Of a DNA stretch of 36,909 nucleotides, positions 1-23,143 are shown piece by piece. A model generated the notes under the pieces. It searched no databases, was not told the origin of the DNA, and was given only the letters and a program-made list of their open reading frames with translations. The position numbers were made by a program, and so were the translations under genes. The first letter of the stretch is position 1, and every line of letters starts with the position of its first letter. This stretch comes from an uncultured archaeon (GTDB lineage: Archaea; Asgardarchaeota; Thorarchaeia; Thorarchaeales; Thorarchaeaceae): NCBI GenBank assembly GCA_964564335.1, contig CAZMBV010000003.1:1953-38861 (forward strand). Direction: 5' to 3'.

Positions 1-756
1 AGTTTGATAACTGTGAATGTTGTTTCAGCAGGACCAGGTCCTTCAATCGGAACACCATCAACTCAGCCTGAGGTTCCAATAGCAAATGAGGAACTCACCG
101 TCATTGTTCCAGTTACATCTTCAGAAACGATAACATACGTAAGACTCCAATACAGTATCAACGATGGAACAGAATGGCTGAATGTTACAATGTCTGAAGA
201 AGGTGGTAATTATATTGGTATCATTCCCGGATTTGCGAATAATCAGGTTGTACAATGGCGAATTGTGGCAGCTGATGCATCAGGTGTGGAAACCGTAGGT
301 CCAATATTATCTTACACCGTTGGACAGATACCTGTGGAGCCATTTGATATTCCTCAATTCCATTATGGATGGTTATTAGGAGCGCCAGCTTTAGTCTTAG
401 CATATCTTGGTTCAGCCCTCGAGTATTATGATGAAGAACGGTTTACCAAAGTTCATGGTATTATGCTGACTGTTGCATACATTTTAACAAGCATTAATGT
501 CATTTCACTAGTAATGGAACCATCAGGTGTTTGGGCAGCGATGAATCCTGCGTATTTGTTCAATTTGAGCAACATGTTATTATTCATGCACTCCTGGCAC
601 ATCTGGCTTGGAATAATTAGTATGATTCTAGGTACTCTCGCAGTTATTACACATCTCGGTGGTTGGAAAACATGCAATCTAGGATTACCTGCAGTAGTAC
701 TATGGACCATACTTGGGATAATGGGCATCTATCTGGGAGAAACTTTCATTCTATGA
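1..756 (+). CDS. C-terminal part (5'-truncated by window) of a secreted beta-rich/Ig-like protein ending in a ~4-TM His-containing membrane domain (cytochrome b561/DUF420-like)
   Basis: Frame is open to base 1. Ig-like strands (VRLQYSIND..., YIGIIPG, VQWRIVAAD) are followed by hydrophobic helices with KVHGIML, MHSWHIWLG and ITHLGG. TGA stop at 754-756. Confidence 0.7.
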   Translation, partial: SLITVNVVSAGPGPSIGTPSTQPEVPIANEELTVIVPVTSSETITYVRLQYSINDGTEWLNVTMSEEGGNYIGIIPGFANNQVVQWRIVAADASGVETVGPILSYTVGQIPVEPFDIPQFHYGWLLGAPALVLAYLGSALEYYDEERFTKVHGIMLTVAYILTSINVISLVMEPSGVWAAMNPAYLFNLSNMLLFMHSWHIWLGIISMILGTLAVITHLGGWKTCNLGLPAVVLWTILGIMGIYLGETFIL

Positions 757-766
757 GGTGATTGAG

Positions 767-2251
767 ATGTCAAATGAAGAAATAGAAAATGAAGTCGAAT
801 CAATTCCTGAAACTCCTCCTGAAACAGCAACTCCTGAGAAAGAATCAGTAATTGACTTGCTAAAAGGAGTAGTAGGAGAAGGACGAGTTGGAGACTCAGA
901 GCTTGAACGCGTCGTCTATAGCGGAGACCCTTCATCATTACCTCAATATCACTATAGATGGAAGATAAAGTATCTTGCTGACTATGTTGTGAGAGTTGAA
1001 AATGAAAAGGAGATTCAGGACATTCTGAAAATCGCTCGTGAATACAATATTCCTGTTATTCCACGAGGCGGCGCTTCAAGTTGTATGAGTTCTTCTAGTC
1101 CGAGTCGTGGAGGAATATCTCTCGATATGAAACCTATGAACAAGATACTAGAGATCAACAAGGAAGGAATGTTCGTTCGAGTTGAACCAGGAGTAACTTT
1201 TGAAAATCTTGCAAACGCATTAGCAAAACAGAATCTTACCCTGGGTATTTATCCATCAAGTGCAAAATCTGCAGTAATCGGAGGGTGGATTGGATGTGGA
1301 GGTAGAGGTGGAATAGGTACTCCGTTCTATGGAAGCCTCAAAGATCATATCATGGCATTATCTGTTATCGGAGGAGATGGTTCATTAGAAGTCCTGGAAG
1401 GCGAGGATATCAATCTCTTTCTCAATTCATATGGTATACTGGGTGTTGTTTTTGAGGTTAAATTAAAGATTCACGAGATTGTTCATGAGTACAAATCATT
1501 TAGCTACGGATTTAGAACAATCGAAGGACTCTGTAATGCATTGACAGAAATCACAACACTTGAAGCAAGACCAGTTTATCTAAAAATTGCAGATGACGAG
1601 TTGCAGAAATACAGCAATCCACTTGAGATTGGTAAATATGTTCTATCAGTGACCTATATCGATGTACCCTCAGTCCCGCTTGAAGACTTGAAGTCAATTA
1701 CTGGTAAACACGATGGAGTGTACATCAACGAAGAATTTTCAGAGAAGGAATGGGATCTGAGGTATGATGCGGAATTCAATCCAAAAGAACATACGGAAAC
1801 TCTAATGTTCCAAGAATTCTGGATGCCTATTGAAAAGGTGCATGAAATGCTTTCAGCATTTGAGAAATATCGCAGATCACACAAGATTCCTGCTTTATGG
1901 TTTGGGATGCTTGGCACTCAAAATGAAATGAGACTCGAACTCATGGTAATGATAGATGCAGCACAATATCTCAAGTTCATTTCAAGCAAAGGAATCTTGC
2001 ACAAGATGATGAAGAAGGCGATCAAAATAGGAGGCGCACCATATACGATCGGACTTCAGAATTCAATCTACATGTCTCGCGCATATCCAAACCGGATGGC
2101 AGAAATGCAAAAAGCAAAGGAGAAATGGGACCCTAGTGGAATCATGAATCCGGATAGAGTTACGAGTTGTTTGACATCATATAGGAGAATAGATGTCCTA
2201 TTCTTGCTTGCCACCGCTTTTCGGCGGTTGTCAAAATATGTGGGAGAGTGA
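767..2251 (+). CDS. FAD-binding oxidoreductase, GlcD/VAO (FAD_binding_4 + FAD-oxidase C) family, paralog 1
   Basis: IPRGGASS, VEPGV, YPSSAKSAVIGGWI, SYGILGVV and C-terminal DPSGIMNP motifs. SD GAGGTGA at 755-761 favours ATG 767 over GTG 758. Confidence 0.88.
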   Translation: MSNEEIENEVESIPETPPETATPEKESVIDLLKGVVGEGRVGDSELERVVYSGDPSSLPQYHYRWKIKYLADYVVRVENEKEIQDILKIAREYNIPVIPRGGASSCMSSSSPSRGGISLDMKPMNKILEINKEGMFVRVEPGVTFENLANALAKQNLTLGIYPSSAKSAVIGGWIGCGGRGGIGTPFYGSLKDHIMALSVIGGDGSLEVLEGEDINLFLNSYGILGVVFEVKLKIHEIVHEYKSFSYGFRTIEGLCNALTEITTLEARPVYLKIADDELQKYSNPLEIGKYVLSVTYIDVPSVPLEDLKSITGKHDGVYINEEFSEKEWDLRYDAEFNPKEHTETLMFQEFWMPIEKVHEMLSAFEKYRRSHKIPALWFGMLGTQNEMRLELMVMIDAAQYLKFISSKGILHKMMKKAIKIGGAPYTIGLQNSIYMSRAYPNRMAEMQKAKEKWDPSGIMNPDRVTSCLTSYRRIDVLFLLATAFRRLSKYVGE

Positions 2252-2260
2252 GATTTTACA

Positions 2261-3385
2261 ATGAATATCGATAATCTTTCAGAAATTCTAAAAAATTGTG
2301 GTTCATGTAATTATTGCAGGGACACTTGTCCAATGTTTATAGAGTTAAAATCAGAGCTTGATAGCCCTGGAGGAAAACTCAGAGCATTAAGGGCATATGC
2401 CACTAAGATGCGGGACCCTCCAGCAGCTCTCCTAGAGAAACTCTATTGTGCAGACTGCCGAAGATGTGAAGCAATCTGTCCAGCTGGAGTTCCAGTTACA
2501 GACATCTGGCACGATGCAAAGGCGCAACTCCTAAAAACTGGAGGAGAGATGTCAGAGTCACTAACAAAGGTGCTTGAGTGGTTAGAAAAAGAAGGAACAC
2601 CATTCGTCGGATTTGAAGCCGATGAGCGAGGTGTATGGGCCGAAGATCTCGAGCTTCCAGAAGAATCAAACACAGCGATTTTCTCTGGTTGCATGGGGAG
2701 TTTCTGGTACCCCGACCAACCTGAGACAATAGTTGATATGTTACATAAATTGAATGTGAATGCAGGATATGTTCCCAGCGAAGTTTGTTGTGGTCTTTTC
2801 AATTATTGGGCTGGTGACGATAAGGGCTTTGAAAAGATTGTCCGTAAGAATTACGAGATGTTTAAGAAAGCAGGAGTTGACCATATTGTAACTGGTTGTG
2901 GAGGATGTTATGGCACACTAGCAGAACATTATCCTCGTATCATTCCAGATTTTGATATCAAGATTCTACATTCTGTGGAAGTCTTAGCCAATATGGTTCA
3001 AAATGGAGTTCTCACTTTTGAAGGTCTGGAAGGGACCTATACATATCATGATGGTTGCCACCTCGGAAGAGGTTTAGGAATCTACGAACCACCGAGAGAA
3101 ATCATTCGAGCAGTTCCTGATCTTGAGCTCGTTGAGTTGAAGAACAACAGAGAGAATTCGAATTGTTGTGGTGGCTTTCTTGCAGTCCTCGATCCAGATG
3201 TTGCTGCATCAGTAGGAAGGCGAAGAGTCGCTGAAGCAGAAGAATTGGGAGTTGATGGGATCATCACGTCCTGCATTTCGTGCTATAAGAATCTCAGTTA
3301 TAATGCAAGGGAAACAAAGCTGAAAGTGATACAGCTTGATGAATTAATACTAGATAAAGCTCGATCCTCTCTAGTTGAAGGATAG
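2261..3385 (+). CDS. (Fe-S)-binding oxidoreductase, GlcF/HdrD-like (2x[4Fe-4S] + 2 CCG domains), paralog 1
   Basis: CGSCNYCRDTCP and CADCRRCEAICP clusters. CCG domains GC..EVCCG..CGGC and YHDGCH..NCCGG..CISC. Confidence 0.9.
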   Translation: MNIDNLSEILKNCGSCNYCRDTCPMFIELKSELDSPGGKLRALRAYATKMRDPPAALLEKLYCADCRRCEAICPAGVPVTDIWHDAKAQLLKTGGEMSESLTKVLEWLEKEGTPFVGFEADERGVWAEDLELPEESNTAIFSGCMGSFWYPDQPETIVDMLHKLNVNAGYVPSEVCCGLFNYWAGDDKGFEKIVRKNYEMFKKAGVDHIVTGCGGCYGTLAEHYPRIIPDFDIKILHSVEVLANMVQNGVLTFEGLEGTYTYHDGCHLGRGLGIYEPPREIIRAVPDLELVELKNNRENSNCCGGFLAVLDPDVAASVGRRRVAEAEELGVDGIITSCISCYKNLSYNARETKLKVIQLDELILDKARSSLVEG

Positions 3386-3419
3386 GAAGAGTTACAAATA
3401 AAGAATGGAGATGTAATGT

Positions 3420-4748
3420 ATGAGTAAAGAAAAAGGCACACGCGTTGTGATTGTTGGTGGTGGAATTTCAGGATTTAGTTGTGCACTGGAATTAAAGGGT
3501 CTAAAGGCTCGTTGTACGATTCTAGAAAAGGAGAAGACAGTCGGAGGCCGTGCAAGATCCTACACCGAATCAGGATATGTCTTTGACCAAGGTCTACACT
3601 TTTTCGTTGGTGGCTTTAAATCACTAATTCCTATTCTCGAGAGAAGCGGTGTGAGAATGACCACAGTAGGTGAAGGTGCAGTCTGGTTGAAGGATGGGAA
3701 TAGACACATCATTCGTAGGTCTGCTGTGGAGCTTGCTAAGTTTGGACTGCTTCCTACAACTGATAGAGCTCGACTGGGATTACTAATTCAGGAGAACATA
3801 AAGAGATCAAAAGAGGAGTTCAAAGAACTTGACAAAATGACCTTTTCAGAATATGCTCAAGATAAGAAAATCCCAGAATCGATTCAAAACGACTTCTATG
3901 CTCCGCTTATTAAGACAGTCACGTTCATGGATCCTAGCGAGGTTTCCGCTGGACAATATCTATACTCTGAGAACCTGAGATTTGCATATGAAGATGGTTT
4001 CAGTGCGATGTATCCAGAAAGAGGCGGGTTAGGTAGTGTAGCATATACACTGATGCTGCAAGCACGTAACTTTGGAGTAGAACCACAAGTCAACTGCGCT
4101 GTCAAACAAGTCATAATCGAGGACGGAAAAGTTGTCGGAGTTGATTATGAACAAGATGGCGAGAGCAAACATCTTGACACTGATGCTGTTGTCTTAACTG
4201 TACCAATTGATCTTCTACCAAACTTTGTGAAAATGAGTGATCTACCTAAAGAGTTCACTCAGAAGGCAGCTAAGTTTCAATACGCTCCATCCACAGTGGC
4301 ATACTTTGGATTGAAGTCGCGAATATTAGATTTCAATGTAGGTGCTTTTGTACCTGAGAGAAAAATCAACATAGTTGCAGAAGCTAAGAGGGTTTCAGGT
4401 GTTTTAGCTCCAATAGGTGAATCACTCTTAACCGTGACAGGAATTGATAAAGAACTTCTCAAAATGAGTGATGAAGATGCTACTGAAGAAATCCTTAATG
4501 AGCTTGAGATACTGATTCCTGGTGTGAAGGAGAAAGTCACATGGAAGAAGAGTTGGAAGATCTGGAAATCAGTTCTTTCACAACCACCGGGAATAATGGA
4601 TGATCGTTTGACAACAAACCGGACTGGCGTTCAAGGGCTGTATGTTGCAGGTTCACATGCGAATTGTGGAATGTATTACGCTTCGATGGAAGCTGCATCT
4701 AGGTCAGGTATGGCTTGTGCTGGAGAGATGATTGCAGACCTTAAGTGA
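3420..4748 (+). CDS. FAD-dependent oxidoreductase, phytoene/zeta-carotene desaturase/HpnE-like (amine oxidase fold)
   Basis: Rossmann IVGGGISG, LEKEKTVGGRARS, DQGLHFFVG and C-terminal GLYVAGSH..SMEAASRSG. The last two resemble PDS/ZDS GLHxFFG and SMEGA. Confidence 0.75.
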   Translation: MSKEKGTRVVIVGGGISGFSCALELKGLKARCTILEKEKTVGGRARSYTESGYVFDQGLHFFVGGFKSLIPILERSGVRMTTVGEGAVWLKDGNRHIIRRSAVELAKFGLLPTTDRARLGLLIQENIKRSKEEFKELDKMTFSEYAQDKKIPESIQNDFYAPLIKTVTFMDPSEVSAGQYLYSENLRFAYEDGFSAMYPERGGLGSVAYTLMLQARNFGVEPQVNCAVKQVIIEDGKVVGVDYEQDGESKHLDTDAVVLTVPIDLLPNFVKMSDLPKEFTQKAAKFQYAPSTVAYFGLKSRILDFNVGAFVPERKINIVAEAKRVSGVLAPIGESLLTVTGIDKELLKMSDEDATEEILNELEILIPGVKEKVTWKKSWKIWKSVLSQPPGIMDDRLTTNRTGVQGLYVAGSHANCGMYYASMEAASRSGMACAGEMIADLK

Positions 4749-4854
4749 CTCAATCCGCATATTGAATATGCTAAGAGTGTAACAGCTCTTGGCATAACTA
4801 TATACTGGCACACAGTAATTTGGGAATAAGCAGTTTCATATGGTGTGCTTAGAG

Positions 4855-6048
4855 ATGACCAAACTGGACTTCCTTGAGAAATACAAACAAGAAGATGAAC
4901 CATATGTCTGCGCATCGTGTGGGAACTGTACTCTTGTCTGTCCAGTTTTTCATGAATTAAATTGGGAGTCTTATGGGCCACGAGGCAAACTACATCTGGT
5001 CAAATCAGTCATTGAAGGAACAAGCGAATTCGGACAAGATCTCGCTGACAAGATTTTTCTATGCAACTTATGCGAGCACTGTACGTTTGTTTGCACAACT
5101 GGTATTAGTCTTGATCGATTTTGGGAAGTAGTTCGGGCAGAAGTCCGAGAACGAGATTTGTTGCCAGCTCCAGCCAAATTTGTTCTGAAATCACTCAAAG
5201 AACGTGGGGATCCAATGTGGATGGGTTCGGCAGACAGACTTCTATGGATGGAAGGTGTGGAAGAACTTGTCAAAGGACGTATATTGAAAAAAGCCAAGGT
5301 TGCGTATTTTCTAGGTTGCAATGTTTCCTTGAAGTCCCAGCTGCATGATGTAGCTAAATCAATGGTCAAGATATTGGACTACGCAGGCATTGACTATACA
5401 TTACTCGGGGACAAAGAGGTATGTTGTGGTGCTCCTTTGGGGTGGGCGGGAAATCTTAAAGATATCAATGAAATGGCCGAGAAGAATCTGGAAATCATGG
5501 AGCAACTAGGAGTTGAAACAATAGTATTCAGCTGCCCTTCTTGTATACAGACTTGGTCAGAATACAGCGAACGTGTGAAAAAAGACCATAACATCGAACT
5601 ACTGACTGCATCACAATTTATCAATCGTTTAATCCGTGAGAAACGGCTTCACTTTGATGAGCAGCCTATGATAACAACAACATTTCATGATCCTTGCATC
5701 TCAGCCAGAGTATTGAAAGCAACTGAAGAACCTAGGGAAATCATCGATGAGATTCCTGGTGTTTATAATGTTGAGATGAATCCTTCGCGGCAAAATACAA
5801 GGTGTTGTGGATCTCATGGTTTACTCGATGTCGTAAATCCTGTTCTCTCAGCTAAAATTGCTGAGAGACGTCTGAGAGATGTGACTGTAACTCCTGCGAC
5901 TCGGGTCGTTACTGAGTGTCCCCGATGTATTCTAGCATTCGACCTTGCAAAATTCACTACGAACTATGATATACAGGTGCAGGACATCACACAACTTGTA
6001 GCTAGTTCCTTATCACCAAAAAAGGAGGAAGGTGACAGGAACCGATGA
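4855..6048 (+). CDS. (Fe-S)-binding oxidoreductase, GlcF/HdrD-like, paralog 2
   Basis: CASCGNCTLVCP, CNLCEHCTFVC, VCCG..CPSC, FHDPC..RCCG..CPRC. Start is 4855 or 4840. Overlaps the next gene (ATGA). Confidence 0.9.
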   Translation: MTKLDFLEKYKQEDEPYVCASCGNCTLVCPVFHELNWESYGPRGKLHLVKSVIEGTSEFGQDLADKIFLCNLCEHCTFVCTTGISLDRFWEVVRAEVRERDLLPAPAKFVLKSLKERGDPMWMGSADRLLWMEGVEELVKGRILKKAKVAYFLGCNVSLKSQLHDVAKSMVKILDYAGIDYTLLGDKEVCCGAPLGWAGNLKDINEMAEKNLEIMEQLGVETIVFSCPSCIQTWSEYSERVKKDHNIELLTASQFINRLIREKRLHFDEQPMITTTFHDPCISARVLKATEEPREIIDEIPGVYNVEMNPSRQNTRCCGSHGLLDVVNPVLSAKIAERRLRDVTVTPATRVVTECPRCILAFDLAKFTTNYDIQVQDITQLVASSLSPKKEEGDRNR

Positions 6049-7766
6049 GCTCAGAGGAACTACGAATTGGTGATATCGTTGGAGCTGATAATGTTTCAAC
6101 TACGCCAGAAACATGCATGATTTATTCAAAAGATGTGACGAGTTTACCGGACTTGGTGCATCAGATTGTTAGCCCCAGATTTGATGTTGTTACTCAACCT
6201 GTGGATGTTCCTTCACTTCAGAATCTGATTTTGTATGCAATAGAGAATAGAATTCCTGTAGTTCCTAGAGGAAATGGTACCTCTGGATGGGGTGGAGCAA
6301 TTCCGACAAGAGGAGGGTTCTGCATTGCGCTATCAGGTATGTCTGAAATTTTATACTTCAACGAGTTCGAGTCTGCTGTGACTGTTGAAACAGGTATTAC
6401 ATGGAGAAACCTTCTAACATTCTTAGAGCGTCTTGGTTTTACACTACCGGTCTATCCTTCAAGTGCGACCGCAGCGACTGTTGGGGGATTCGTAGCAAGT
6501 GGAGGTCTCGGAATAGGATCGACTCGCAATGGTGATATTCTGAAGCAAGTTCTTGGAATTGAAGCGGTTTTACCAAATGGAAAACTCGTAAGACTTGGGC
6601 AAGTATTACTTGACTCAAAGAGTGATATGCTCAGCGAAAGAGCGAAAGAAGGTAATGAATGGTTAAGCAAGCAGTTATCAGCAGCGGGACTTGGCACTCC
6701 CGAGCAAGAAACTAAGCTTTTCACTGGTACATATGGAACTCTTGGTATAATAACAAAGGTCACTCTCAAGATAATACCGAAACTCCAACTAGTTCCATTT
6801 ACGTGCTCATTTGACAGTATGGAAGATCTTGTGAGAACTGCAGATAGAATCCTATCTACTGTCAAACCATATTATATGAGATTTCTTACGAATGAGTACA
6901 CATCCAAATTAGGAAACTTGAAAGCGCGCGAAAATGAGAATGGAAAGTACATCCTTACCGGAGCTCTCCTTGACACCATTTACCAAAATGAAGATAATGT
7001 TGAGATAATTAAAACAACTACAGAGCAAGAAAATGGATTTGTTTTGGATGATAAGCGGGCTTTGTATTATTGGGATGAAAGACTCTATCCCCTGAGAATT
7101 AAACGACATGGGCCGAGTATTGTCCCTGCAGAGATGCTTGCGCCTCTAGATATGCTTCCAGAGATATTAGAGAAGACCAAGTACGAACTTCGAAATTCCA
7201 ACGTTGCTATTGAAGGAATGCTGAACAATGATAGTACTGCTTCCTTCATGGTCTGGATCTTAGATGATGAAAGGAAGAAATTCTCATTCACAGTTGGGTG
7301 GTATCGGTCATTTCAGATTGCTTCACTTGCGGAGCGTTTTGGCGGTCGTCCATACGCAGTGGGATTATGGAATGGAAGACATGCAAAGAAATACTATGGC
7401 AACGATTCATACAACAATCTCAAAGTCATGAAGAAAAAACTCGATCCAAATAATATCATGAATCCAGTCAAAGTCTTTGGTGGTAGAGTGACAATTGGTA
7501 GGGTATCGATGCTTTCTGGATTTCTTATTGGATTTGTAGGCGTTCTGGTAGTTGGGTGGGTGGGTCCAAGATTTCTTGGTCTTATCTCGTTAATTCAATT
7601 GCTTGAAACGAGTTTACTCCCTTCATTCTATTTTCCGCCCTTAGCACTTATTGCATTCGCAGCAGGATTAGGAGGGCTTTTAATTACTAGACTAATGACT
7701 TTGAATCAAGCGTTAGCCATGGGTATCCCTGTTCTAAAAATCCTCGGCAAGCTACTACGAAGATAG
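6045..7766 (+). CDS. FAD-binding oxidoreductase, GlcD/VAO family with C-terminal membrane anchor, paralog 2
   Basis: VPRGNGTSGWGG, YPSSATAATVGG, GTYGTLGIIT and DPNNIMNP, then ~95 extra residues with two hydrophobic segments. Confidence 0.88.
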   Translation: MSSEELRIGDIVGADNVSTTPETCMIYSKDVTSLPDLVHQIVSPRFDVVTQPVDVPSLQNLILYAIENRIPVVPRGNGTSGWGGAIPTRGGFCIALSGMSEILYFNEFESAVTVETGITWRNLLTFLERLGFTLPVYPSSATAATVGGFVASGGLGIGSTRNGDILKQVLGIEAVLPNGKLVRLGQVLLDSKSDMLSERAKEGNEWLSKQLSAAGLGTPEQETKLFTGTYGTLGIITKVTLKIIPKLQLVPFTCSFDSMEDLVRTADRILSTVKPYYMRFLTNEYTSKLGNLKARENENGKYILTGALLDTIYQNEDNVEIIKTTTEQENGFVLDDKRALYYWDERLYPLRIKRHGPSIVPAEMLAPLDMLPEILEKTKYELRNSNVAIEGMLNNDSTASFMVWILDDERKKFSFTVGWYRSFQIASLAERFGGRPYAVGLWNGRHAKKYYGNDSYNNLKVMKKKLDPNNIMNPVKVFGGRVTIGRVSMLSGFLIGFVGVLVVGWVGPRFLGLISLIQLLETSLLPSFYFPPLALIAFAAGLGGLLITRLMTLNQALAMGIPVLKILGKLLRR

Positions 7767-7989
7767 CAGCAACTCGTTTAATTTTTTCTTACAAAAGATT
7801 GAAGTAAGTCATATGCCTGACAATACTAATCGTTGATGTACATTTGGTTATACAGGTTTCAAAAAGAATCAATGAATGCCAGTTAACCAATATGCTCAAA
7901 TATGAGACATTAGTTTGAAAATGAAACTTGGCGAATGTATTCTCAATGGTCGAAGATACAGAACGAAACCAAAAATGAGTGTTGCTGTA

Positions 7990-8580
7990 ATGAAACGTAA
8001 TCAAACTATTAAAACCATCATCGCTATTGGCTTTTTATCATTACTTGTTGTGACTGCTGCAGGTTCAGTTGGAGCTTTTTCAAGTAAGACAAATGAATGT
8101 GGAACATCTGGTTGTCATGATACAGCTGGAGTCCTAACTCTATCTTCAAACTCGACTAGCTTCAGTGCAACAACAGGAAACCCATTTGTCTTGGTGATTC
8201 AGGCAGGAAATGGGGCAGAATGGATTAAAGTCGAGCCGGGATGGGAAGACAATGCTCAGTTTTCAATTTCTCAAAATGCGATTGAGGATGGATCAGTTAA
8301 CGATACTGATGCAGCCACAGGAGCCATTTCTGTAGAGATTACATTCATTCCATTATCAGCTGGTACTCAGACAATTCGCATCTGGACAGCAGCTCAAAGC
8401 GATTTAGCAACTTCACTCGATATCACAGTCACTGTGACCGGTGATTCAATTACGACGCCCACACCTCCACCCACTGTAGATTTGGTTGGGACATGGAGAA
8501 TGTTAATGATTATACTCCCAGTATCAGTAGGCGCAATTCTTCTGATTCTAGGAGTGGTTATAATAAAGAGGAAAGCATGA
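7990..8580 (+). CDS. Exported, C-terminally anchored protein with CX4CH motif (putative atypical monoheme c-type cytochrome)
   Basis: Signal peptide MKRNQTIKTIIAIGFLSLLVVTAAGSVGA. CGTSGCH at 8098-8118, then a beta-rich domain, a TTPTPPPT linker, a TM helix and a KRKA tail. Start is 7990 or 7975; the track's 7915 looks over-extended. Confidence 0.7.
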   Translation: MKRNQTIKTIIAIGFLSLLVVTAAGSVGAFSSKTNECGTSGCHDTAGVLTLSSNSTSFSATTGNPFVLVIQAGNGAEWIKVEPGWEDNAQFSISQNAIEDGSVNDTDAATGAISVEITFIPLSAGTQTIRIWTAAQSDLATSLDITVTVTGDSITTPTPPPTVDLVGTWRMLMIILPVSVGAILLILGVVIIKRKA

Positions 8581-8591
8581 AGGTGATATGA

Positions 8592-9095
8592 TTGGCACTA
8601 CATCCATTATTTATACACTTCCACACAGGAATTCTAGCAGTATCAGCTATTTTGGCTATGGTTAATCTACTCTTACGTTTCGGGTTTAAAGACAACATTC
8701 GTACTCCTGGAACACGACTTGCTCGGTTGTTTCATCAGATTGATGTCTTCATGTATGTCGGAATAATAATCGGTTTCATTGGATTAATCGCAGGTGCGAT
8801 CACAGGATTTATGGAGCCAGACTATTCTCTTGCCGCACTTGAAGCATCTGCAATCATGAGGTTCAAGATTCTATGGTCTGTTATTTTAATTGAGATATAC
8901 TTCTTCCTAATGATCGTTCGAACTAAACTGGGAGATCGTATATGGAAGGGAGCGGGTAGTTCGCTCACTTATGGGATTCTCATAATAATAGGCGGTGCGT
9001 TCATCGTTCTCATTGCTGCACTCGGAGGTCTTGCAGTGTATGGAGAGACGATTATGGAACCAATCTTCAATTGGATAGGTATACCCTGGCCATAA
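8592..9095 (+). CDS. DUF2231-like 4-TM membrane protein (possible heme b binding)
   Basis: N-terminal LHPLFIHFH resembles the DUF2231 HPxxVHF motif. AGAITGF and ALGGLAVYG segments. SD AGGTGA at 8581-8586, TTG start. Confidence 0.7.
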   Translation: MALHPLFIHFHTGILAVSAILAMVNLLLRFGFKDNIRTPGTRLARLFHQIDVFMYVGIIIGFIGLIAGAITGFMEPDYSLAALEASAIMRFKILWSVILIEIYFFLMIVRTKLGDRIWKGAGSSLTYGILIIIGGAFIVLIAALGGLAVYGETIMEPIFNWIGIPWP

Positions 9096-9110
9096 TAAGG
9101 AGACCCAGCA

Positions 9111-10289
9111 ATGACGAAACCCTACGAACCTCTCAAACAAGACGGACTCGAGATAGAACCAATAGTGTGTGCAAGGTGCGGCTTTTGTACATTCGTGTGC
9201 CCAGCTTATCTTGATACTCTCTGGGATTCACAATCACCGAGAGGGAAGATATTCCAACTAGCGGATCTCATTAAGAATAACAAGCCAATTCCAGCTGACT
9301 TTGCAGCTAGGATTTTCAATTGCACATTATGTGGAGCATGTCAAGAAATCTGTCAGACAAATATACCTCTATTGAGATTCTGGCAACGTGTAAGACAAGA
9401 GATTGGAAATCTTGAGGAATGGCCAGAAATCGTGAATTATATCGATACATCGATACAAGAGACTCAGAACATCATGGAGATGGACCAAGAGGACAGAAAC
9501 CTCTGGACAGATATGGTGGATGATCTTGTTGAGGACAGAATAGGAATCAAAGCTGAGGTGGCATATTTTGCAGGTTGTAATATTTCCTTCAAAGGAACAC
9601 TTGCACATATGGGCGAAAACACAATCAAAATAATGCATGCAGCCGGAGTGGATTTCACAATCCTCGGTGAAGAAGAATATTGTTGCGGGAATCCTTACTT
9701 CGTAGCAGGTGGTTTTGACAAGGGTATTGAATTAGCAAAACACAATCTCCAGAAGATGAAAGAACTTGGTGTGAAGACTGTAGTCTTCAACTGTCCAGGT
9801 TGCCATCGGTCTTTTTCGGAAGAATATCCTCACTTACTCGGTAAAGAAGCAACAGAGGGACTTGAGTTCCTTCCATTCTCAGAGTTTGTTTTGAGACTTC
9901 TCAACGAAGGAAAAATCAAATTCATTAAGAATTACCCACATGTGGTAGCTTGGCATGATCCTTGTGAATTGGGACGTCATCAAAACATCTACAATCCCGC
10001 TCGAGAGGTTTTGAATGCGATTCCTGGAATACAGGTTCGTGAGATGAAACACAATCGAAACAAAGCAAGGTGTTGTGGTGGTGGTGGACTGCTCAAAGGG
10101 ACTAATCCCATGATGTCTGTGCGAATTTCAGGTAGACGTGTTGAAGAAGCGACGAAGACAGGAGCCGAAATCATGTCCAGTGAATGTCCATCATGTACAA
10201 TGTCATTGAAGGATGGAATTGAACATATAGAATCGGACATGAAGTTCAAGGACTTGTCACAGATAGTAGTGGAGGCTCTTGGATTATAG
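9111..10289 (+). CDS. (Fe-S)-binding oxidoreductase, GlcF/HdrD-like, paralog 3
   Basis: CARCGFCTFVCP, CTLCGACQEIC, YCCG..CPGC, WHDPCE..RCCGG..CPSC. SD AGGAG upstream. Confidence 0.9.
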   Translation: MTKPYEPLKQDGLEIEPIVCARCGFCTFVCPAYLDTLWDSQSPRGKIFQLADLIKNNKPIPADFAARIFNCTLCGACQEICQTNIPLLRFWQRVRQEIGNLEEWPEIVNYIDTSIQETQNIMEMDQEDRNLWTDMVDDLVEDRIGIKAEVAYFAGCNISFKGTLAHMGENTIKIMHAAGVDFTILGEEEYCCGNPYFVAGGFDKGIELAKHNLQKMKELGVKTVVFNCPGCHRSFSEEYPHLLGKEATEGLEFLPFSEFVLRLLNEGKIKFIKNYPHVVAWHDPCELGRHQNIYNPAREVLNAIPGIQVREMKHNRNKARCCGGGGLLKGTNPMMSVRISGRRVEEATKTGAEIMSSECPSCTMSLKDGIEHIESDMKFKDLSQIVVEALGL

Positions 10290-10300
10290 GGAGTGAAGAT

Positions 10301-12022
10301 ATGTTACGAAATGAACATTTACAAAAACTTGCAGATATCGTTGGTGAAGATTTCTTCTCATCAGCAGAGTACATGAATCAACTCTACTCACACGACATTT
10401 CTGCACTTCCAGGAATTGTCAATGACCTAATCAATCCTCATGCAGAAGCAGTTGCACAACCAACTACTAGCGAAATAGTATCGAATTTACTCAAATATTG
10501 TAAAGAGAATAATATCCAGGTTATTCCTCGTGGACATGGAACTTCTGGATATGGCGGAGCGCTCCCTACAAAGGGTGGCTTAGTAGTCGATATGACCCGA
10601 ATGAATGAAATATACGACATCGACAAAGGCAGCATGACAATCCAAGTTGGTGCAGGAATTATTTGGGGAAGATTAATCGAATTTCTTGAAGACGAAGGAC
10701 TATCAGTTGCAGCCTATCCTTCTAGTGCACCTTCCTGTACAGTGGGTGGATGGGTGGCTGCAGGAGGCTGCGGTATTGGTAGTACCAAATATGGAGGCAT
10801 CAGAGAGCAAGTTGTAGAGATGGAAGTCGTCTTACCAGACGGCGAGATCATTAGTACGATTAAACCAATCGATGAAGTTTTCAAAGATGACAAGCCAGAA
10901 CCATTTTTCAAAGGAGACAAGAAATTCTATTGGGAATCCGAAGTTGGCTCAGAAAACAATGAAGAGTCCACTTCAATGTTTATTGATAGTAATGGAACAT
11001 TGGGAATAATCACTAAGGTCGTATTGAGCATAATTCCAATCCGTAAGATTAAACCTATGACTATTTCATTCCCAAACAAGGAACAGACCATGGGTGCTAT
11101 GCAAGCTATCCTCAGAATCACGAGACCTTTCTATCTCCATTTCATAACAGACGAGTTTTTTGGGATGCTAAAAGAGTTAGATAAGGCTCCTGATGTAGCA
11201 GGTGAATGGCTTGTTCTATGTGCTCTTGAAGGAACAGAAGAAGAAAACAATGAATTTGCAGAAAAAATCACCAAAGCAATAGCAATGTATCATGGGACAG
11301 TCGAGTCAGAAGAAATAGGTCATCATGAATGGGATGAAAGGTTCTATCCCATGAGAGTGAAAAGATTGGGTCCAAGTGTAGCGCCATCTGAGGTATATGT
11401 TCCCCTAGAGAGAATGGTGGACTTCATTGACCACTGTAACAAGCATTTCAAGGGAGAGAGAATGGCTATGGAAGGAGCTGTCAATCATCGAAATGAAGTT
11501 GCAGTGCTTACCTGGTTCTTGGATGATGAGCGTCGGAGAATTCCATTCATGTTTGGATGGTATCGGTCTCTTGATGTCATAAATATCGGTATCAAGAAAG
11601 GTGGAAGAGCATACTCTATTGGAATGTGGAATGTCGCACATTCACGCCAGTTCTATGGTAAAGAAGATTATACCAAGATGGCTAAACTAAAGAAAAGGAC
11701 TGATTCGAAGAGCTACCTTAATTCGCATAAAGTATTCCCAGGGCCATTATATTTGAGTACTCGAATTGGGCTGCTCATTATGTTGGCCGCTGCTATCGCA
11801 GTGCCAATTGCTATAATGGTTGCTTGGTGGATAGTGCCAAGTATACTTACAGCCTACGTTCCATGGGTTGTCGTAAATGATCCTGCAACTTTTCTATTGT
11901 GGGCGATAGTTGGGGTTGGCGTCGGATTTGCGGTACAAGAATTTGCAAATCTAATACCAATTTCTGTTGTCCTATCAATGGGTACACCTTTCCTCAGGTT
12001 GGGAAGGAAGATATTCCACTGA
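10301..12022 (+). CDS. FAD-binding oxidoreductase, GlcD/VAO family with C-terminal membrane anchor, paralog 3
   Basis: IPRGHGTSGYGG, YPSSAPSCTVGGW, SNGTLGIIT and WDERFYPMRVKRLGPS. C-terminal TM hairpin. Confidence 0.88.
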   Translation: MLRNEHLQKLADIVGEDFFSSAEYMNQLYSHDISALPGIVNDLINPHAEAVAQPTTSEIVSNLLKYCKENNIQVIPRGHGTSGYGGALPTKGGLVVDMTRMNEIYDIDKGSMTIQVGAGIIWGRLIEFLEDEGLSVAAYPSSAPSCTVGGWVAAGGCGIGSTKYGGIREQVVEMEVVLPDGEIISTIKPIDEVFKDDKPEPFFKGDKKFYWESEVGSENNEESTSMFIDSNGTLGIITKVVLSIIPIRKIKPMTISFPNKEQTMGAMQAILRITRPFYLHFITDEFFGMLKELDKAPDVAGEWLVLCALEGTEEENNEFAEKITKAIAMYHGTVESEEIGHHEWDERFYPMRVKRLGPSVAPSEVYVPLERMVDFIDHCNKHFKGERMAMEGAVNHRNEVAVLTWFLDDERRRIPFMFGWYRSLDVINIGIKKGGRAYSIGMWNVAHSRQFYGKEDYTKMAKLKKRTDSKSYLNSHKVFPGPLYLSTRIGLLIMLAAAIAVPIAIMVAWWIVPSILTAYVPWVVVNDPATFLLWAIVGVGVGFAVQEFANLIPISVVLSMGTPFLRLGRKIFH

Positions 12023-12104
12023 ATCAAATCTGTCGAGCTAAATAGATGTAGACAGACTAAAAAGACAGGCAGTAGTGAAACATAGAAAGAGGATTAGGAT
12101 TCAG

Positions 12105-12785
12105 ATGTCAGCCAAAGCCATCGAGATACGAGATCTCACTAGGAGATATGGGTACAGAGTTGCGCTAAGGAAAATATCTCTCGATTTCTCAGAGAAAGGG
12201 ATTCAGGGTCTCTTTGGTTCAAATGGCGCTGGCAAAACAACATTATTGCGAGTCATATCCACACTACTGCGTCCTCACGGAGGAACGATCATTGTTATGG
12301 GATTCAATCCACAAGAAGAGCCAGAAGAGGTGAAGAAGTTTCTGGGTCTAGTGGGAGATAAACCACTACTATATAATGAGCTAACAGGCATCGAGAATCT
12401 CAGATTTTATTCAAAGCTTTATGGATTGCGGTCTGACTTCTTTGAAAGCCAGGTTGAGGAGTTATCCCAACGTTTTGCCATTAAGACTTGGCTTGAAGAA
12501 CCTGTCAAGAATCTATCGACGGGACTTAAAAAAAGACTTGATATCGTTCGAAGTCTGATTCACAACCCAGAACTATTGCTTCTAGATGAACCATTCAGCG
12601 GCTTAGATAAAGATACAACTGAGGATTTTCAAGAATATCTCAATGAGTTTAGAAACATAAGAACAACAATTGTGACAACTCACAATCTAGCTTTTGGAGC
12701 TGAATTGTGTGATGAATTTGTCACTCTCAGAAAAGGAGTAGTCGTTAGTCAAGGTCCAATTTCTGAATTTGATCAGACACTCTGA
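12105..12785 (+). CDS. ccmA: Heme-exporter ABC ATPase CcmA
   Basis: Walker A GSNGAGKTT, signature LSTGLKKR, LLLDEPF. Directly upstream of ccmB and ccmC. Confidence 0.85.
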   Translation: MSAKAIEIRDLTRRYGYRVALRKISLDFSEKGIQGLFGSNGAGKTTLLRVISTLLRPHGGTIIVMGFNPQEEPEEVKKFLGLVGDKPLLYNELTGIENLRFYSKLYGLRSDFFESQVEELSQRFAIKTWLEEPVKNLSTGLKKRLDIVRSLIHNPELLLLDEPFSGLDKDTTEDFQEYLNEFRNIRTTIVTTHNLAFGAELCDEFVTLRKGVVVSQGPISEFDQTL

Positions 12786-12794
12786 GGTGATACG

Positions 12795-13502
12795 ATGACA
12801 TCCGGATTTAGTGCAGCATTTGCAATCGCAAAGAAGGACATTATCATTCAATTTCGTAAGAAGTTTGAAGCATTCGCAATGTTTCTCTTTGCTCTGATTG
12901 CAGTCATTGCATTTTCTTTTGCACTTGTTTCAGAAGGGTCGATACCAGCAGATGTTGGAAGTGCTATGTTGTGGGTCATCATTTTCTTCATGGGAATGTT
13001 TGGTTTCGCTCCCATTTTCCTTTCAGAATCTGAAACAGGAACCCTACGTGGTCTTGCAACCGCCCCAATTCCAGCATGGGCAGTGTATATTGGCAAAGTT
13101 ATCTATGGTTTTGTCCTGATGGGAATGGTTGTGATCTTTCTAGTTCCTATAATTTCTGTATTGTTTGGTTTCTCATTCCTGACTAACCTTCCACTAACTA
13201 TCGCTGTATTCATTATCGGAATATTAGATTTGGCTGCAGTAGGTTCAATGGCATCAGCCCTAACAATGCCTTCGGAAGCAAAAGCAACAGTATTTCCACT
13301 CGTGTATTTCCCTACAGCAACATCAGGATTAATCCTCCTCATCGAAATCACAAAGAGTATAGTTCTAGGTGACCTGTTTATAGGCATTGGAGTCATGGGA
13401 CCTGAACAAACAGTTATGTTACTATTTGAAATACTTCTTGCTCACCTGATAGCTATGTTGACACTCTCAGCATCTGTATTCCACTTTGCGCTTTCACCTT
13501 GA
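12795..13502 (+). CDS. ccmB: Heme exporter permease CcmB
   Basis: 6-TM protein with AIAKKD, LWVIIFF and ESETGTLRGL..P..VYIGK, typical of CcmB. SD GAGGTGA. Confidence 0.85.
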   Translation: MTSGFSAAFAIAKKDIIIQFRKKFEAFAMFLFALIAVIAFSFALVSEGSIPADVGSAMLWVIIFFMGMFGFAPIFLSESETGTLRGLATAPIPAWAVYIGKVIYGFVLMGMVVIFLVPIISVLFGFSFLTNLPLTIAVFIIGILDLAAVGSMASALTMPSEAKATVFPLVYFPTATSGLILLIEITKSIVLGDLFIGIGVMGPEQTVMLLFEILLAHLIAMLTLSASVFHFALSP

Positions 13503-13564
13503 ATGTTCAAAACTATCAAAACCTTCATATTGCAAGTAGCAGAGCAAGCATCAATTCGAGTTGA

Positions 13565-14239
13565 ATGGCCGTGAGTAAGAACCGACTGATATTTCTCGGA
13601 ATAACAGCAGCGATATCACTTCTCTATGTCTATATGACATGGATTTTCTCACCACCAGATGCTGTACTTGGAGAAAACGTTCGTATCTTCTTCCAGCATG
13701 TAGCCCCTGCTCTTGTAGCATACGGATTATTCGGGGGAACATTACTATGCGGAATAATGTATCTCTGGAAAGGAGATTTGAAATATGACATCCTCGGAGC
13801 GGTATCAATTAAACTTGGATTGTTGTTCACTACTATAACACTATTGAGTGGTATGATGTGGGCGGATGCAGCATGGCATTCACCTTGGAACTGGGACCCA
13901 CGCGAAACGACCACTCTCATTTTATGGGTAGCATATGCTTGTATCTTAGCATATCGATCCTCTGTTAGTGATCGAGAGGTAAGAGCCCAATTTGGTTCTA
14001 TCTTCGGGATCATTGCGTTCCCGATGGTAATATTGAGCTATCTTTCAATCCAAATTTGGGACACTCTTCATCCAAGAGTTATAACAGAATCAGGACTTAA
14101 TATGGAAGTAGAACACATGATGACCCTATTTGTTGCAATGATTGCAGTTACAATGATTGCACTGATTATGGTCGAACTAGCATATAGAGTCGATTTAGCA
14201 TATGAGAAGTTGATGAGAATAAGAATGTCAAGGAGCTAA
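13565..14239 (+). CDS. ccmC: Cytochrome c biogenesis protein CcmC
   Basis: WWD motif GMMWADAAWHSPWNWDPRETT, flanked by His ligands (IFFQHV, TLHP). Confidence 0.93.
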   Translation: MAVSKNRLIFLGITAAISLLYVYMTWIFSPPDAVLGENVRIFFQHVAPALVAYGLFGGTLLCGIMYLWKGDLKYDILGAVSIKLGLLFTTITLLSGMMWADAAWHSPWNWDPRETTTLILWVAYACILAYRSSVSDREVRAQFGSIFGIIAFPMVILSYLSIQIWDTLHPRVITESGLNMEVEHMMTLFVAMIAVTMIALIMVELAYRVDLAYEKLMRIRMSRS

Positions 14240-14243
14240 TATA

Positions 14244-14384
14244 ATGCAGCAGGTTGAACTATTCGTTGTAGCCATAATACTGTGGGGTGGAATGTTCGCA
14301 TTCCTATTTTACCTTCTAATGAGAATGGTCGGAATCGAAAAACAAATCAAGATTGTTGAATCGCAGATAGATGGAGAACAATAG
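14244..14384 (+). CDS. ccmD: CcmD-family small membrane protein (46 aa, not in ORF track)
   Basis: Manually translated MQQVELFVVAIILWGGMFAFLFYLLMRMVGIEKQIKIVESQIDGEQ*. Single TM plus charged helix. Fills the ccmC-ccmE gap almost exactly (4 and 2 nt spacers). AGGAG upstream. Confidence 0.8.
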   Translation: MQQVELFVVAIILWGGMFAFLFYLLMRMVGIEKQIKIVESQIDGEQ

Positions 14385-14386
14385 AG

Positions 14387-14773
14387 ATGAATAAGAAGAC
14401 TCGAATGGTTCTTGTTGTGGTCATCCTAGTATCTACTATTGGTTTTGTCGGTTTTAGCATGCTCAATCTCTTTGTGGATCCATACCTGAGTGTAGATGAT
14501 GTTGTTGAACATCCTGATTCGTATATTGGTAGAACAATACAGGTCAAAGGAGCACTTCAAGCAGGTTCTCTAACCATAAGTGCGGAGAATGTAACTCTAG
14601 TAATCGAAGGAGATAATTATACAATCACAGTGCTGCTACTAGGGGAAGTCCCAGACATGATTGATGGTCAAGATATTGTGGCAATTGGGACGCTGGAATC
14701 AGCCACTCTTATGAGAGCTACCGACATTTTGACATCGTGTCCAAGCAAATACGAAGCCACAACTACTCCATAA
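14387..14773 (+). CDS. ccmE: Heme chaperone CcmE, CxxxY variant (System I*)
   Basis: N-terminal TM, YLSVDDV, OB-fold and ILTSCPSKYE, where Cys replaces the His of HxxxY. Confidence 0.93.
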   Translation: MNKKTRMVLVVVILVSTIGFVGFSMLNLFVDPYLSVDDVVEHPDSYIGRTIQVKGALQAGSLTISAENVTLVIEGDNYTITVLLLGEVPDMIDGQDIVAIGTLESATLMRATDILTSCPSKYEATTTP

Positions 14774-15132
14774 AGAATTGATTCCCAATCATCACCAAAT
14801 CTTACCTTATGACCAAGAGGCTTTGTTTCAAGCATCCAATGAGTATGAACTTTCACGAGTATCAATGCTAACTATATTTCCGGTCGTTTTCAAGCTCGAT
14901 AAAACCTGTGACTTCTGTTGTTGTTCAGTATGTATTGATGCAGTTTGCCTTCTCTGTAGGTTCAATGATGTTTTTCATTTACAACATCTGATAAGGAATG
15001 TAAATAGATCGATGATTTTCTTTGCAGAATCTAACCTTATAGGGTCACATTTAAATTATGGTTAATAAAATATATGTAGCGTTTGAGCGTGTACAAGAAC
15101 GTCTGGTGGACCCATCCGCTAGAACGAAGGTT

Positions 15133-15468: not shown

Positions 15469-15469
15469 A

Positions 15470-17489: not shown

Positions 17490-17500
17490 GAGGAAGTTGA

Positions 17501-18505: not shown

Positions 18506-18510
18506 TAGAG

Positions 18511-18888: not shown

Positions 18889-18889
18889 A

Positions 18890-21645: not shown

Positions 21646-21646
21646 T

Positions 21647-23134: not shown

Positions 23135-23143
23135 GGAGATATT

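Follow-up and report, generated by a model that had tools for sequence, protein, structure and literature searches.

What can a flavoprotein of the D-lactate dehydrogenase type do once the residues that such an enzyme works with are gone? Three GlcD-like flavoprotein genes, here called FAD1, FAD2 and FAD3, raise this question in a stretch of Thorarchaeon DNA of 36,909 nucleotides (the window). They belong to a cluster of ten genes, all on the plus strand, in bases 1-12022. We believe that the three proteins are probably the flavin subunits of three paralogous membrane-associated oxidoreductase modules that join a flavin adenine dinucleotide (FAD) protein to an iron-sulfur (Fe-S) protein, do without a metal, and are tied to cytochromes and to a complex-I-like chain. 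Canonical oxidation of D-lactate or glycolate by them is rather unlikely. A first-pass annotation of the window had drawn attention to the missing motifs; it was right, and the observation is broader than could be seen from the window itself, for the three proteins fall into a large uncharacterised group that no curated family covers.

The catalytic residues

The first-pass annotation stated that all three flavoproteins lack the HxxDGNxH and (G/A)EHGxG motifs of D-2-hydroxyacid dehydrogenases and share GGxxYxxG(L/M)xN instead. A regular-expression scan of the frames bears this out, with zero occurrences of [GAS]EHG.G and of H..DG[NS].H, and the translations read KIGGAPYTIGLQN, FGGRPYAVGLWN and KGGRAYSIGMWN where the shared motif lies. 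The other likenesses it listed are there as well: YPSSA occurs in every paralog (IYPSSAKSA, VYPSSATAA, AYPSSAPSC), and a stretch of the type WDERxYPxRxKRxGPS is common to FAD2 and FAD3 (WDERLYPLRIKRHGPSIVPAE, WDERFYPMRVKRLGPSVAPSE), with WDLRYDAEFNPKEH in FAD1.

Membership in the wider group is clear. The three proteins match PF01565 (FAD_binding_4) with E-values of 5e-30 to 1e-41 and PF02913 (FAD-oxidase_C) with 1e-8 to 3e-8, above the gathering scores. The NCBIfam model of GlcD (TIGR00387) gives them 133.1, 120.4 and 142.7 bits against a cut-off of 567.9, and zero NCBIfam models reach their cut-off for the window proteins or for 10 diverse relatives. Sequence identity is 36% between FAD3 and FAD2 and 28% between FAD3 and FAD1.

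We took the residue register from HMMER alignments to mouse LDHD. Since the PDB set has both wild-type LDHD and an H405A mutant, His405 can be placed in GHVGDGNFH and the numbering is fixed. According to the accessible parts of the LDHD study (PMC10589216), His398, His405 and Glu442 bind Mn2+, Arg347 binds the carboxylate and His443 is the proposed base, and alanine mutants of each of these five residues are inactive. In our alignment GG-R-x-Y-x-x-G stands opposite LDHD GGTCTGEHGIG, with a three-residue gap over Thr440-Gly441-Glu442, and Tyr438 of FAD3 falls opposite the catalytic His443; all three paralogs have Tyr at that position. MEGAVNHRNEVAVL stands opposite GHVGDGNFHCIL, which puts Ala393 and Val400 of FAD3 in place of His398 and His405, and FAD1 and FAD2 likewise have no His there. 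The loss of the metal triad and the catalytic His that the annotation reported is therefore a loss of residues that mouse LDHD needs. Four of the five are changed or deleted in the family alignment and one, Arg347, is kept (WDER, WDER and WDLR opposite WAAR of LDHD; in FAD3 the residue is also numbered Arg347). A further three-residue gap follows Arg347, and a basic R-x-K-R stretch (R352, K354, R355) is found where LDHD reads LALS. Judged by this alignment, the GG..Y..G motifs are positions homologous to the LDHD motif and no chance likeness. An alignment of the three paralogs has no invariant His or Cys column, so a shared alternative His-based metal site is not visible at the level of sequence.

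The predicted fold is as expected. An AlphaFold2 model of FAD3 residues 1-486, made with a 92-sequence alignment, has a mean predicted local distance difference test score (pLDDT) of 91.3, and its top Foldseek matches are LDHD (template-modelling score, TM, 0.80-0.86), RPA1076, LctD, AGPS (TM 0.66-0.79) and D2HGDH. The modelled fold is that of the GlcD/AGPS branch of the VAO/PCMH flavoproteins. PDB entries 6V42/6V43 ('FAD/FMN-containing dehydrogenase') are a good match to the FAD domain of FAD1, covering profile positions 10-305 only; a literature search on these two entries found nothing relevant.

How far, then, are these proteins from the D-2-hydroxyacid dehydrogenases (mouse LDHD 8jdc/8jde, LctD 7qh2, human D2HGDH 6lpn, GlcD)? 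They share both Pfam domains with them, the profile matches LDHD at 1.5e-77, and Arg347 and the Trp before it are conserved; they differ in the substitutions, the two gaps and the basic stretch described above. It can be argued that the three remain dehydrogenases of D-lactate, glycolate or another D-2-hydroxyacid that have become metal-independent, with the Tyr replacing His443 as the base and Arg347 alone holding the carboxylate, so that the cluster would be an 'HdrD/GlcD lactate oxidation' unit. The conservation of Arg347 and Trp344 suits this idea, as do the best full-length sequence and fold matches, which are LDHD, LctD and a D-lactate dehydrogenase. The pairing of a flavoprotein with a protein of CCG domains also follows the logic of glycolate oxidase GlcDF and of the glycerol-3-phosphate and lactate dehydrogenases, whose NCBIfam models the CCG genes match, and passages of the literature on Bathyarchaeia, Methanomethylicia and Korarchaeia assume such a function. 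Yet we consider it unlikely: four of five positions essential in mouse LDHD are changed or deleted, the GlcD model scores only 120-143 bits, and the genome has a separate GlcD-like protein with an intact canonical site, GHIGNNHLH and AEHGIG (a 555-residue frame on contig C48).

A family with a shared deletion

A profile of the three paralogs found 32,213 matches at E<=1e-3 among 1.84 billion representatives, and 1,335 at E<=1e-30. Residues were counted in the best 150 of the 32,213, aligned to the profile. GEHGIG and HxxDGNxH are kept in 2 of the 150, both of them tandem canonical proteins that rank about 130th. Nearly all the other representatives have the three-residue deletion, as judged from the alignment listing rather than by a count. 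Tyr occupies the His443 column in 103 of the 150, Arg347 is present in 134, Trp344 in 145 and Glu364 in 118, and the basic stretch is widely kept (R/K352 in 119, K/R354 in 132, R/K355 in 121). The flavin domain reads Y-P-S/T-S (Tyr139 in 116, Pro140 in 147, Ser142 in 142) in place of the D-P-G of LDHD and LctD.

We built a FastTree (LG+gamma) tree of the matched domain from 232 sequences: representatives, five Thorarchaeal orthologues, flavoproteins of 78 related loci and the paralogs of the genome itself. Sequences covering fewer than 400 profile positions (P0130, P0133, P0175, P0190, P0239, P0260, P0268, L028, L045) were dropped. The root was placed on three canonical sequences, an outgroup so small that the rooting is provisional. 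Among the branches listed, the family with the deletion has, as a whole, an AGPS-like protein of the same genome as its sister (support 1.00). FAD1 belongs to a separate clade that branches early and has the motif Y..G(L/I)QN (1.00), and FAD2 and FAD3 are sister groups (0.94) near a clade of FAD-NuoB fusions. Relatives linked to GcvH genes form a separate, mostly bacterial clade apart from both.

The claim of the first-pass annotation that these proteins are a subfamily of their own thus stands, as a large distinct clade with a shared deletion and Tyr. Its claim of a different reaction is another matter, because Arg347 is retained in all three paralogs and in 134 of the 150 representatives, so the reaction may still be a metal-independent oxidation of a hydroxy-acid-like anion. 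Its warning that automatic lactate or glycolate labels would be wrong applies only in part. The source names of close relatives are generic ('FAD-binding oxidoreductase', 'FAD/FMN-containing dehydrogenase'), and so are the FAD_binding_4/FAD-oxidase_C clusters of the ESM Atlas; one cluster of relatives there is auto-named 'D-lactate dehydrogenase (cytochrome) family', and metabolic reconstructions, in the parts available, treat HdrD/GlcD pairs as lactate-driven. In a literature search without subscription journals we met no account of a GlcD-like family of the metal-free Tyr type, of its link to GcvH genes or of a FAD-NuoB fusion.

The annotation had also raised chemistry like that of AGPS or DHCR24. 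AGPS is not known to need a metal or to catalyse a net redox reaction. By analogy the three proteins could be ether-lipid or isoprenoid-modifying enzymes, aided by their membrane helices and by the phytoene-desaturase-like (HpnE-like) neighbour in the cluster. AGPS (2uuu, 4bby) is indeed the best PDB sequence match of FAD1 (2uuu, 2e-25) and has no His/His/Glu metal triad in the aligned segment; the AGPS-like gene of the genome is the nearest outgroup in the tree, and FAD2 and FAD3 are membrane-anchored. The catalytic residues of AGPS are Tyr578 and Arg419, whose mutants are named in PDB titles, and an equivalent of the catalytic Arg is present in the family alignment. The HHH loop is a different story: the family consensus GGrp...yGiG stands opposite AGPS GGSlshhHGVG (GGSLSHHHGVG in the 2uuu alignment), with two of the three His deleted and the third a Tyr, and the N-terminal extension of AGPS is absent. 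A dedicated and often fused Fe-S partner argues for net electron transfer and would make no sense for a reaction without any. The genome moreover has its own AGPS-like gene (a 492-residue frame on contig C36, with GGTMSHQHGVG and HFSHMYQNG). Non-redox lipid chemistry is for these reasons very improbable, and chemistry of the AGPS or DHCR24 kind is altogether unlikely. Together with the C48 protein, the C36 protein means that canonical, AGPS-like and Tyr-type forms coexist in one genome.

Iron-sulfur partners and the membrane

Each of the three flavoprotein genes adjoins a gene for an HdrD/GlpC-like CCG protein. The spacing is tight: the CCG2 and FAD2 frames share 4 bases, and 9 and 11 bases separate the genes of the two remaining pairs. 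The NCBIfam matches of the CCG genes are TfrB, LdhH, GlpC and GlcF at 75-166 bits, all under their cut-offs; the best match of CCG1 is the thiol:fumarate reductase subunit TfrB (161 bits, cut-off 385), and CCG3 matches LdhH at 162.6 bits with TfrB just below at 161.2.

The same partnership is found in the relatives. We searched species-representative genomes with the pattern GGxPY[GS][VIF]G[LMI]W, taken from a 15-sequence alignment, which gave 167 confirmed loci, and kept the best 80. A CCG protein is encoded within 8 kb in 76 of these 80. Among the representatives of at least 600 residues (55 of 62 scanned), 32 are fusions of FAD, Fer4_8 and CCG domains, 6 more have a ferredoxin-type domain alone, and 5 are FAD-FAD tandems; single fusions join the flavoprotein to NrfD (P0127), to NuoB (P0129, from a Thorarchaeote), to a 2Fe-2S domain and to three GCV_H domains (P0256). 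These Rosetta-stone fusions and the neighbourhood together indicate that the flavoprotein gives electrons to the HdrD-like protein or takes them from it.

The tandems, and the loss of catalytic residues itself, could be read as signs that the proteins are non-catalytic, GlcE-like subunits that serve as scaffolds or flavin electron relays without a substrate of their own. GlcE is the precedent of a GlcD paralog as a second subunit. The three paralogs match the GlcE model only weakly (28-54 bits, cut-off 284), and no other GlcE-like gene was found in the cluster. The cap-domain residues that line the substrate site in LDHD, Trp344, Arg347 and Glu364, are strongly conserved in the counts above, and most loci have no second, canonical flavoprotein alongside for such a subunit to assist. 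We find this idea scarcely credible.

The path of the electrons may lead to the membrane. FAD2 and FAD3 end in hydrophobic or transmembrane segments (residues 482-553), and FAD1 and the CCG proteins have none. The signal-anchored protein at 7915-8580 has a CX4CH motif (CGTSGCH) after the anchor, and its orthologue in genome G005, of another genus, has CXXCH (CDVCH) at the same aligned site. Taken with the CSASGCH of an ORF1 orthologue and with the cytochrome c maturation (Ccm) genes of the window, this suggests a domain with a single haem c. The DUF2231-like protein, in which His4, His9, His11 and His48 are invariant across 4 orthologues, is a candidate haem-b membrane anchor, and the His residues of ORF1 are possible haem b ligands. 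ORF1 itself has 250 residues here and 398-417 in four relatives; in the aligned 407-residue orthologue of G005 the extra N-terminus is a signal anchor plus CSASGCH. Truncation or a misplaced start may account for the shorter ORF1 of this genome. A 458-residue membrane-anchored multihaem cytochrome c, divergently oriented from ORF1, is encoded on the minus strand just upstream of the window (contig C3:390-1766, locus L018); it has many CxxCH motifs and one CX4CH, and matches Cytochrom_C552/C7/C554.

An operon from NuoA to NuoN begins about 3 kb downstream of the cluster, and no NuoEFG genes were found beside it in the window. Elsewhere in the genome a fourth paralog (contig C26, L017:9870-11873, plus strand; 667 residues, motif GGHPHSTGIWF) is fused to NuoB and heads a second complex-I-like operon of NuoA, J, K, C, D, H and I, to L017:17875. 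Encoded divergently beside it are a CCG gene, a polyprenyl synthase gene and a geranylgeranyl-reductase-like (GGR-like) gene, with a CcmF-like gene about 7.7 kb further upstream. Of the 18 genomes of the family, 12 have weaker matches in open frames as long as the NuoB fusion (648-712 residues), the fusion itself being verified for this genome and for P0129.

The arrangement around FAD3 is conserved. We sampled 121 genomes of the phylum. Five of them, all members of the family to which the window belongs, have full-length FAD3 orthologues with 58-85% identity and with FAD2 about 4.2 kb upstream. The order ORF1-FAD1-CCG1-HpnE-like-CCG2-FAD2-haem c-DUF2231-CCG3-FAD3 is complete in G120, G087 and G005 and runs up to the contig end in G108, and CcmABC follow FAD3 in G120 and G108 too. 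The HpnE-like gene keeps its place in 4 relatives with 74-93% identity.

Lipoyl carriers among the relatives

The best 80 of the 167 loci come from Syntrophomonadaceae, Syntrophaceae, Sporomusa, Desulfosporosinus/Desulfitobacterium, Anaerolineae, Bathyarchaeia, ANME-1, Altiarchaeales and others. We annotated 97 neighbouring open reading frames in 11 loci with Pfam. In Sporomusa ovata (L053), a member of the Syntrophomonadaceae (L081) and Syntrophus (L051) the FAD and CCG genes lie between two GcvH-like genes. These pairs are surrounded by two radical-SAM genes, a gene for a GGR-like flavoprotein, a CMD/AhpD-like gene, DUF6506 and as many as three lipoate-protein-ligase-like genes; an E2 acyltransferase gene is present in two of the three annotated bacterial loci and absent in Syntrophus. 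In Hecatella and in one Altiarchaeales genome, too, the neighbours of the pair include ligase, radical-SAM and GGR-like genes, and an Anaerolineae genome has a ligase/radical-SAM fusion gene beside the pair.

For the best 80 loci we counted neighbours within 8 kb using small hidden Markov models built from the annotated sequences. GcvH-like genes are found in 56, ligase-like genes in 55, CMD genes in 36, DUF6506 in 33 and E2 in 36, counts that are neither complete nor independent, since short loci and loci of related genera are both frequent among them. The set of ligase, radical-SAM and GGR-like genes matches the lipS1-slpl(AB)-lipT-lipS2 lipoate assembly cluster of PMC10332631; the passages of that paper available to us mention Sporomusa and make no mention of the FAD/CCG pair. 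From this linkage to lipoyl and lipoylation genes we think that the CCG subunit of the GcvH-linked bacterial clade most likely acts on a lipoyl carrier.

The bacterial cluster (L053, L081, L051 and 50+ others) has further members. It runs AcoX-like, E2, CMD/AhpD-like, ligase, radical SAM, GcvH, FAD, CCG, DUF6506, ligase, GcvH, ligase, GGR-like, radical SAM, with E1beta in L081 only; its gene of the NAD-kinase fold is one that we take to be AcoX-like. No dihydrolipoamide dehydrogenase gene was seen in its annotated 5 kb flanks.

Could the Thorarchaeal modules then be linked to thiols and disulfides rather than to quinones and cytochromes? The key redox partner would be a protein-bound dithiol. 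The CCG subunit would act on a disulfide as HdrD and TfrB do, on a lipoyl GcvH/LbpA-like carrier in the relatives, and the flavin would handle a common reductant or oxidant such as NAD(P)H, as in MurB, or an oxo-acid. The frequency of GcvH-like and ligase genes, their order with two radical-SAM genes and the GGR-like gene, and the closeness of CCG1 and CCG3 to TfrB all fit this proposal. So does P0256, a 1391-residue Anaerolineae protein in which three GCV_H domains are fused to FAD, Fer4 and CCG. The position of the FAD+Fer4 form beside glutamate-synthase domains in methanogen-related archaea would suit a general electron-input role. It is important, however, that the Thorarchaeal cluster has no GcvH or ligase gene in the window annotation, and that the four GCV_H matches of the genome are all on other contigs. 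The GcvH-linked clade is separate from those of FAD2/FAD3 and FAD1, the GCV_H domains of P0256 are by eye without the Lys of (Q/E)SGKW, and the loci bunch together in phylogeny, with many from Syntrophomonadaceae and Sporomusa, so 56 of 80 makes them look more independent than they are. Nor is there a gap that needs filling, since most Thorarchaeal relatives have Lpd-like proteins. For the Thorarchaeal modules we therefore regard the proposal as quite improbable.

A further idea, that in Thorarchaeia the module stands in for dihydrolipoamide dehydrogenase (E3), was dropped, for TIGR01350 matches are present in 20 of 20 relatives and in the genome of the window. Their scores are mostly 310-400 bits over full length against a cut-off of 408.8, with one genome above it and 127 bits in this genome, which is 83% complete.

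A broader idea would bring the two settings together. The Tyr-type GlcD-like/HdrD-like pair may be a widespread and so far unrecognised redox module whose CCG subunit serves GcvH/LbpA-like lipoyl carriers in many anaerobic bacteria and some archaea. In Thorarchaeia it would have been rewired to membrane-anchored, cytochrome-linked and even NuoB-fused modules for electron input to or output from a complex-I-like chain, its flavin site metal-free and oxidizing no D-lactate. We put this forward tentatively, as something somewhat unlikely when taken as a whole. If true, it would supply a missing 'heterodisulfide' for HdrD/GlcD units that have seemed puzzling in non-methanogens.

Several observations on these relatives stand by themselves. 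The free GcvH-like neighbours keep in (Q/E)SGKW the Lys that the GCV_H domains of P0256 lack by eye. Two methanogen-related archaeal genomes (L094:5019-12266 and L099:7566-15349) have a Tyr-type FAD+Fer4_8 fusion directly upstream of split glutamate-synthase domain genes, with Glu_synthase in both and GXGXG annotated in L094 only; the fusion may serve an archaeal glutamate synthase as its subunit for electron input. One Bathyarchaeon has a [NiFe]-hydrogenase with NuoBCD near a family member. In the Thorarchaeal genome itself, contig C46 (L117:8030-15053, to the contig end) has a more divergent pair of a CCG and a FAD_binding_4 gene, with two AhpC/TSA peroxiredoxin genes, a nitroreductase gene and a malic enzyme gene upstream, then an AAA gene and a GcvH-like fragment at the contig end, possibly a lipoyl- or peroxide-linked module.

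A proposed reaction and electron path

With Arg347 retained, redox chemistry on an anionic substrate remains the simplest reading, and we predict a metal-free oxidation or reduction of such a substrate. An anionic organic molecule would be held by Arg347 and the family-specific basic stretch. Hydride would be exchanged between it and N5 of the flavin, and Tyr438 would act as a proton relay replacing the metal and the His. The two electrons would leave or arrive singly through the adjoining HdrD-like protein, with its two [4Fe-4S] clusters and CCG clusters, and would pass between this protein and the haem proteins of the membrane (the DUF2231-like and the haem-c protein), helped by the C-terminal helices of the flavoproteins. 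The module would thereby be linked to the neighbouring c-type-cytochrome and complex-I/Fpo-like machinery. It could as well be a terminal reductase.

A number of points weigh against this picture. Tyr438, Arg347 and the basic stretch are placed near the flavin by the alignment to LDHD alone, and a retained Arg347 is what a 2-hydroxyacid enzyme would show too. Another possible role of the basic stretch is docking, either of the Fe-S partner or of a protein substrate. Nor is the Tyr universal: 47 of the 150 representatives are without it, including 7 gaps, with H, G, V, L, S, A and others in its place, and whole groups differ, the tandem-FAD clade having S/A/G/V/T and the NuoB-fused clade His. 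The multihaem cytochrome is not beside the cluster in G005, where a fumarase gene stands instead. The sequencing runs that match bases 4840-12022 of the window are of salt-marsh DNA only, with no RNA run among them.

HdrD/GlcD units in other archaea

The arrangement resembles one that has been described before. Passages of papers on uncultured archaea report hdrD co-located with glcD and propose heterodisulfide reduction with lactate as the donor, and these reconstructions, as far as those passages go, infer both lactate oxidation and reduction of the coenzyme M-coenzyme B heterodisulfide (CoM-S-S-CoB) from homology alone. One of the papers calls the unit 'Fpo-associated', finds its conservation in non-methanogens 'puzzling' and suggests 'heterodisulfide cofactors other than CoM-S-S-CoB'. 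Like the units of Bathyarchaeia, Methanomethylicia, Korarchaeia and Archaeoglobi in the parts of this literature available, the window has GlcD-like genes adjoining HdrD-like genes with two CCG domains, three such pairs in all, and genes of an Fpo/Nuo-like complex without an NADH module downstream; on contig C26 a paralog is fused to NuoB. It differs from them in the absence of the lactate-dehydrogenase residues and of methanogenesis genes in the window, and in its membrane helices and haem proteins. Bathyarchaeia account for 5 of the best 80 Tyr-motif loci, four of the 5 with a CCG gene.

The plan of the Fe-S subunit is itself familiar. In GlcDEF, GlpABC, LutABC/LdhH, TfrAB and HdrDE, as here, a protein with two ferredoxin-type clusters and two CCG domains links a flavin site to the membrane or to a disulfide. 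What differs is the flavoprotein, whose family is not that of GlpA, TfrA and LutB, and the membrane partner, which is DUF2231-like, not HdrE.

We believe this matters for how such genes are read. HdrD/GlcD pairs are widely used in reconstructions, to judge from the passages available, as evidence of lactate-driven heterodisulfide reduction, and that reading is doubtful if the flavoprotein is of the Tyr type. A flavoprotein without the catalytic apparatus of lactate dehydrogenase, as in the Thorarchaeal genes and in 148 of the 150 closest representatives, gives no basis for a lactate inference from such a pair. For the specific hdrD/glcD genes of the cited papers the likeness shown is one of gene content and of association with an Fpo/Nuo-like complex. 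Leads are offered by the conserved Tyr/Arg pair with the basic stretch, the frequent linkage to lipoyl carriers and lipoylation in cultivable bacteria (Sporomusa, Desulfitobacterium and relatives of Syntrophomonas), and the NuoB and NrfD fusions. For Asgard biology the locus offers a conserved membrane electron-transfer island of flavoprotein, HdrD-like protein, haem b/c proteins, Ccm and a complex-I-like operon.

The gene cluster

The features of the cluster and of the genes behind it are collected in Table 1. Proteins nearly identical to those of the window carry the source name 'Candidatus Thorarchaeota archaeon'. The first ATG of FAD1 (MSNEE...) is at position 767, which the first-pass annotation took as the start; the open reading frame from GTG begins at 758.

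Table 1. Features of the window, with positions in bases
Feature	Positions	Strand	Remarks
ORF1, membrane protein	1..756	+	Ig/CBM-like outer domain and a domain of 3-4 hydrophobic segments (residues 150-250) with His residues
FAD1, GlcD/AGPS-like flavoprotein, soluble	758..2251	+	497 residues from GTG; motif GGAPYTIGLQN
CCG1, Fe-S protein (HdrD/GlpC/TfrB-like)	2261..3385	+	2x[4Fe-4S] motifs and 2 CCG domains; PF02754 1e-34, Fer4_8
Amine-oxidase/phytoene-desaturase-like flavoprotein (HpnE-like)	3420..4748	+	PF01593 4.5e-38; HpnE 117 bits, cut-off 283
CCG2, HdrD-like Fe-S protein	4840..6048	+	Stop overlaps FAD2 start by 4 bases
FAD2, flavoprotein	6045..7766	+	573 residues; motif GGRPYAVGLWN; C-terminal hydrophobic segments, residues 482-553
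Signal-anchored protein with one haem-c-type motif CGTSGCH and a C-terminal transmembrane helix	7915..8580	+	No Pfam match
DUF2231-like protein, four transmembrane segments	8592..9095	+	Weak PF09990 match, E 0.002; four hydrophobic segments
CCG3, HdrD-like Fe-S protein	9111..10289	+	67-91% identical in 4 relatives
FAD3, flavoprotein	10301..12022	+	573 residues; motif GGRAYSIGMWN; C-terminal hydrophobic segments, residues 482-549
CcmA, CcmB, CcmC, CcmE (cytochrome c maturation)	12075..14773	+	Directly 3' of FAD3
Complex-I/Fpo-like operon: NuoA, B, CD fusion, H, I, J, K, L, M, N	15058..24640	+	

Two further genes of the window deserve mention. The fused NuoC and NuoD (15897-17489, 530 residues) also has a partial match to NiFeSe_Hases, and bases 25640-28252 encode a full-length bacterial-type MutS of 870 residues with all five MutS domains.

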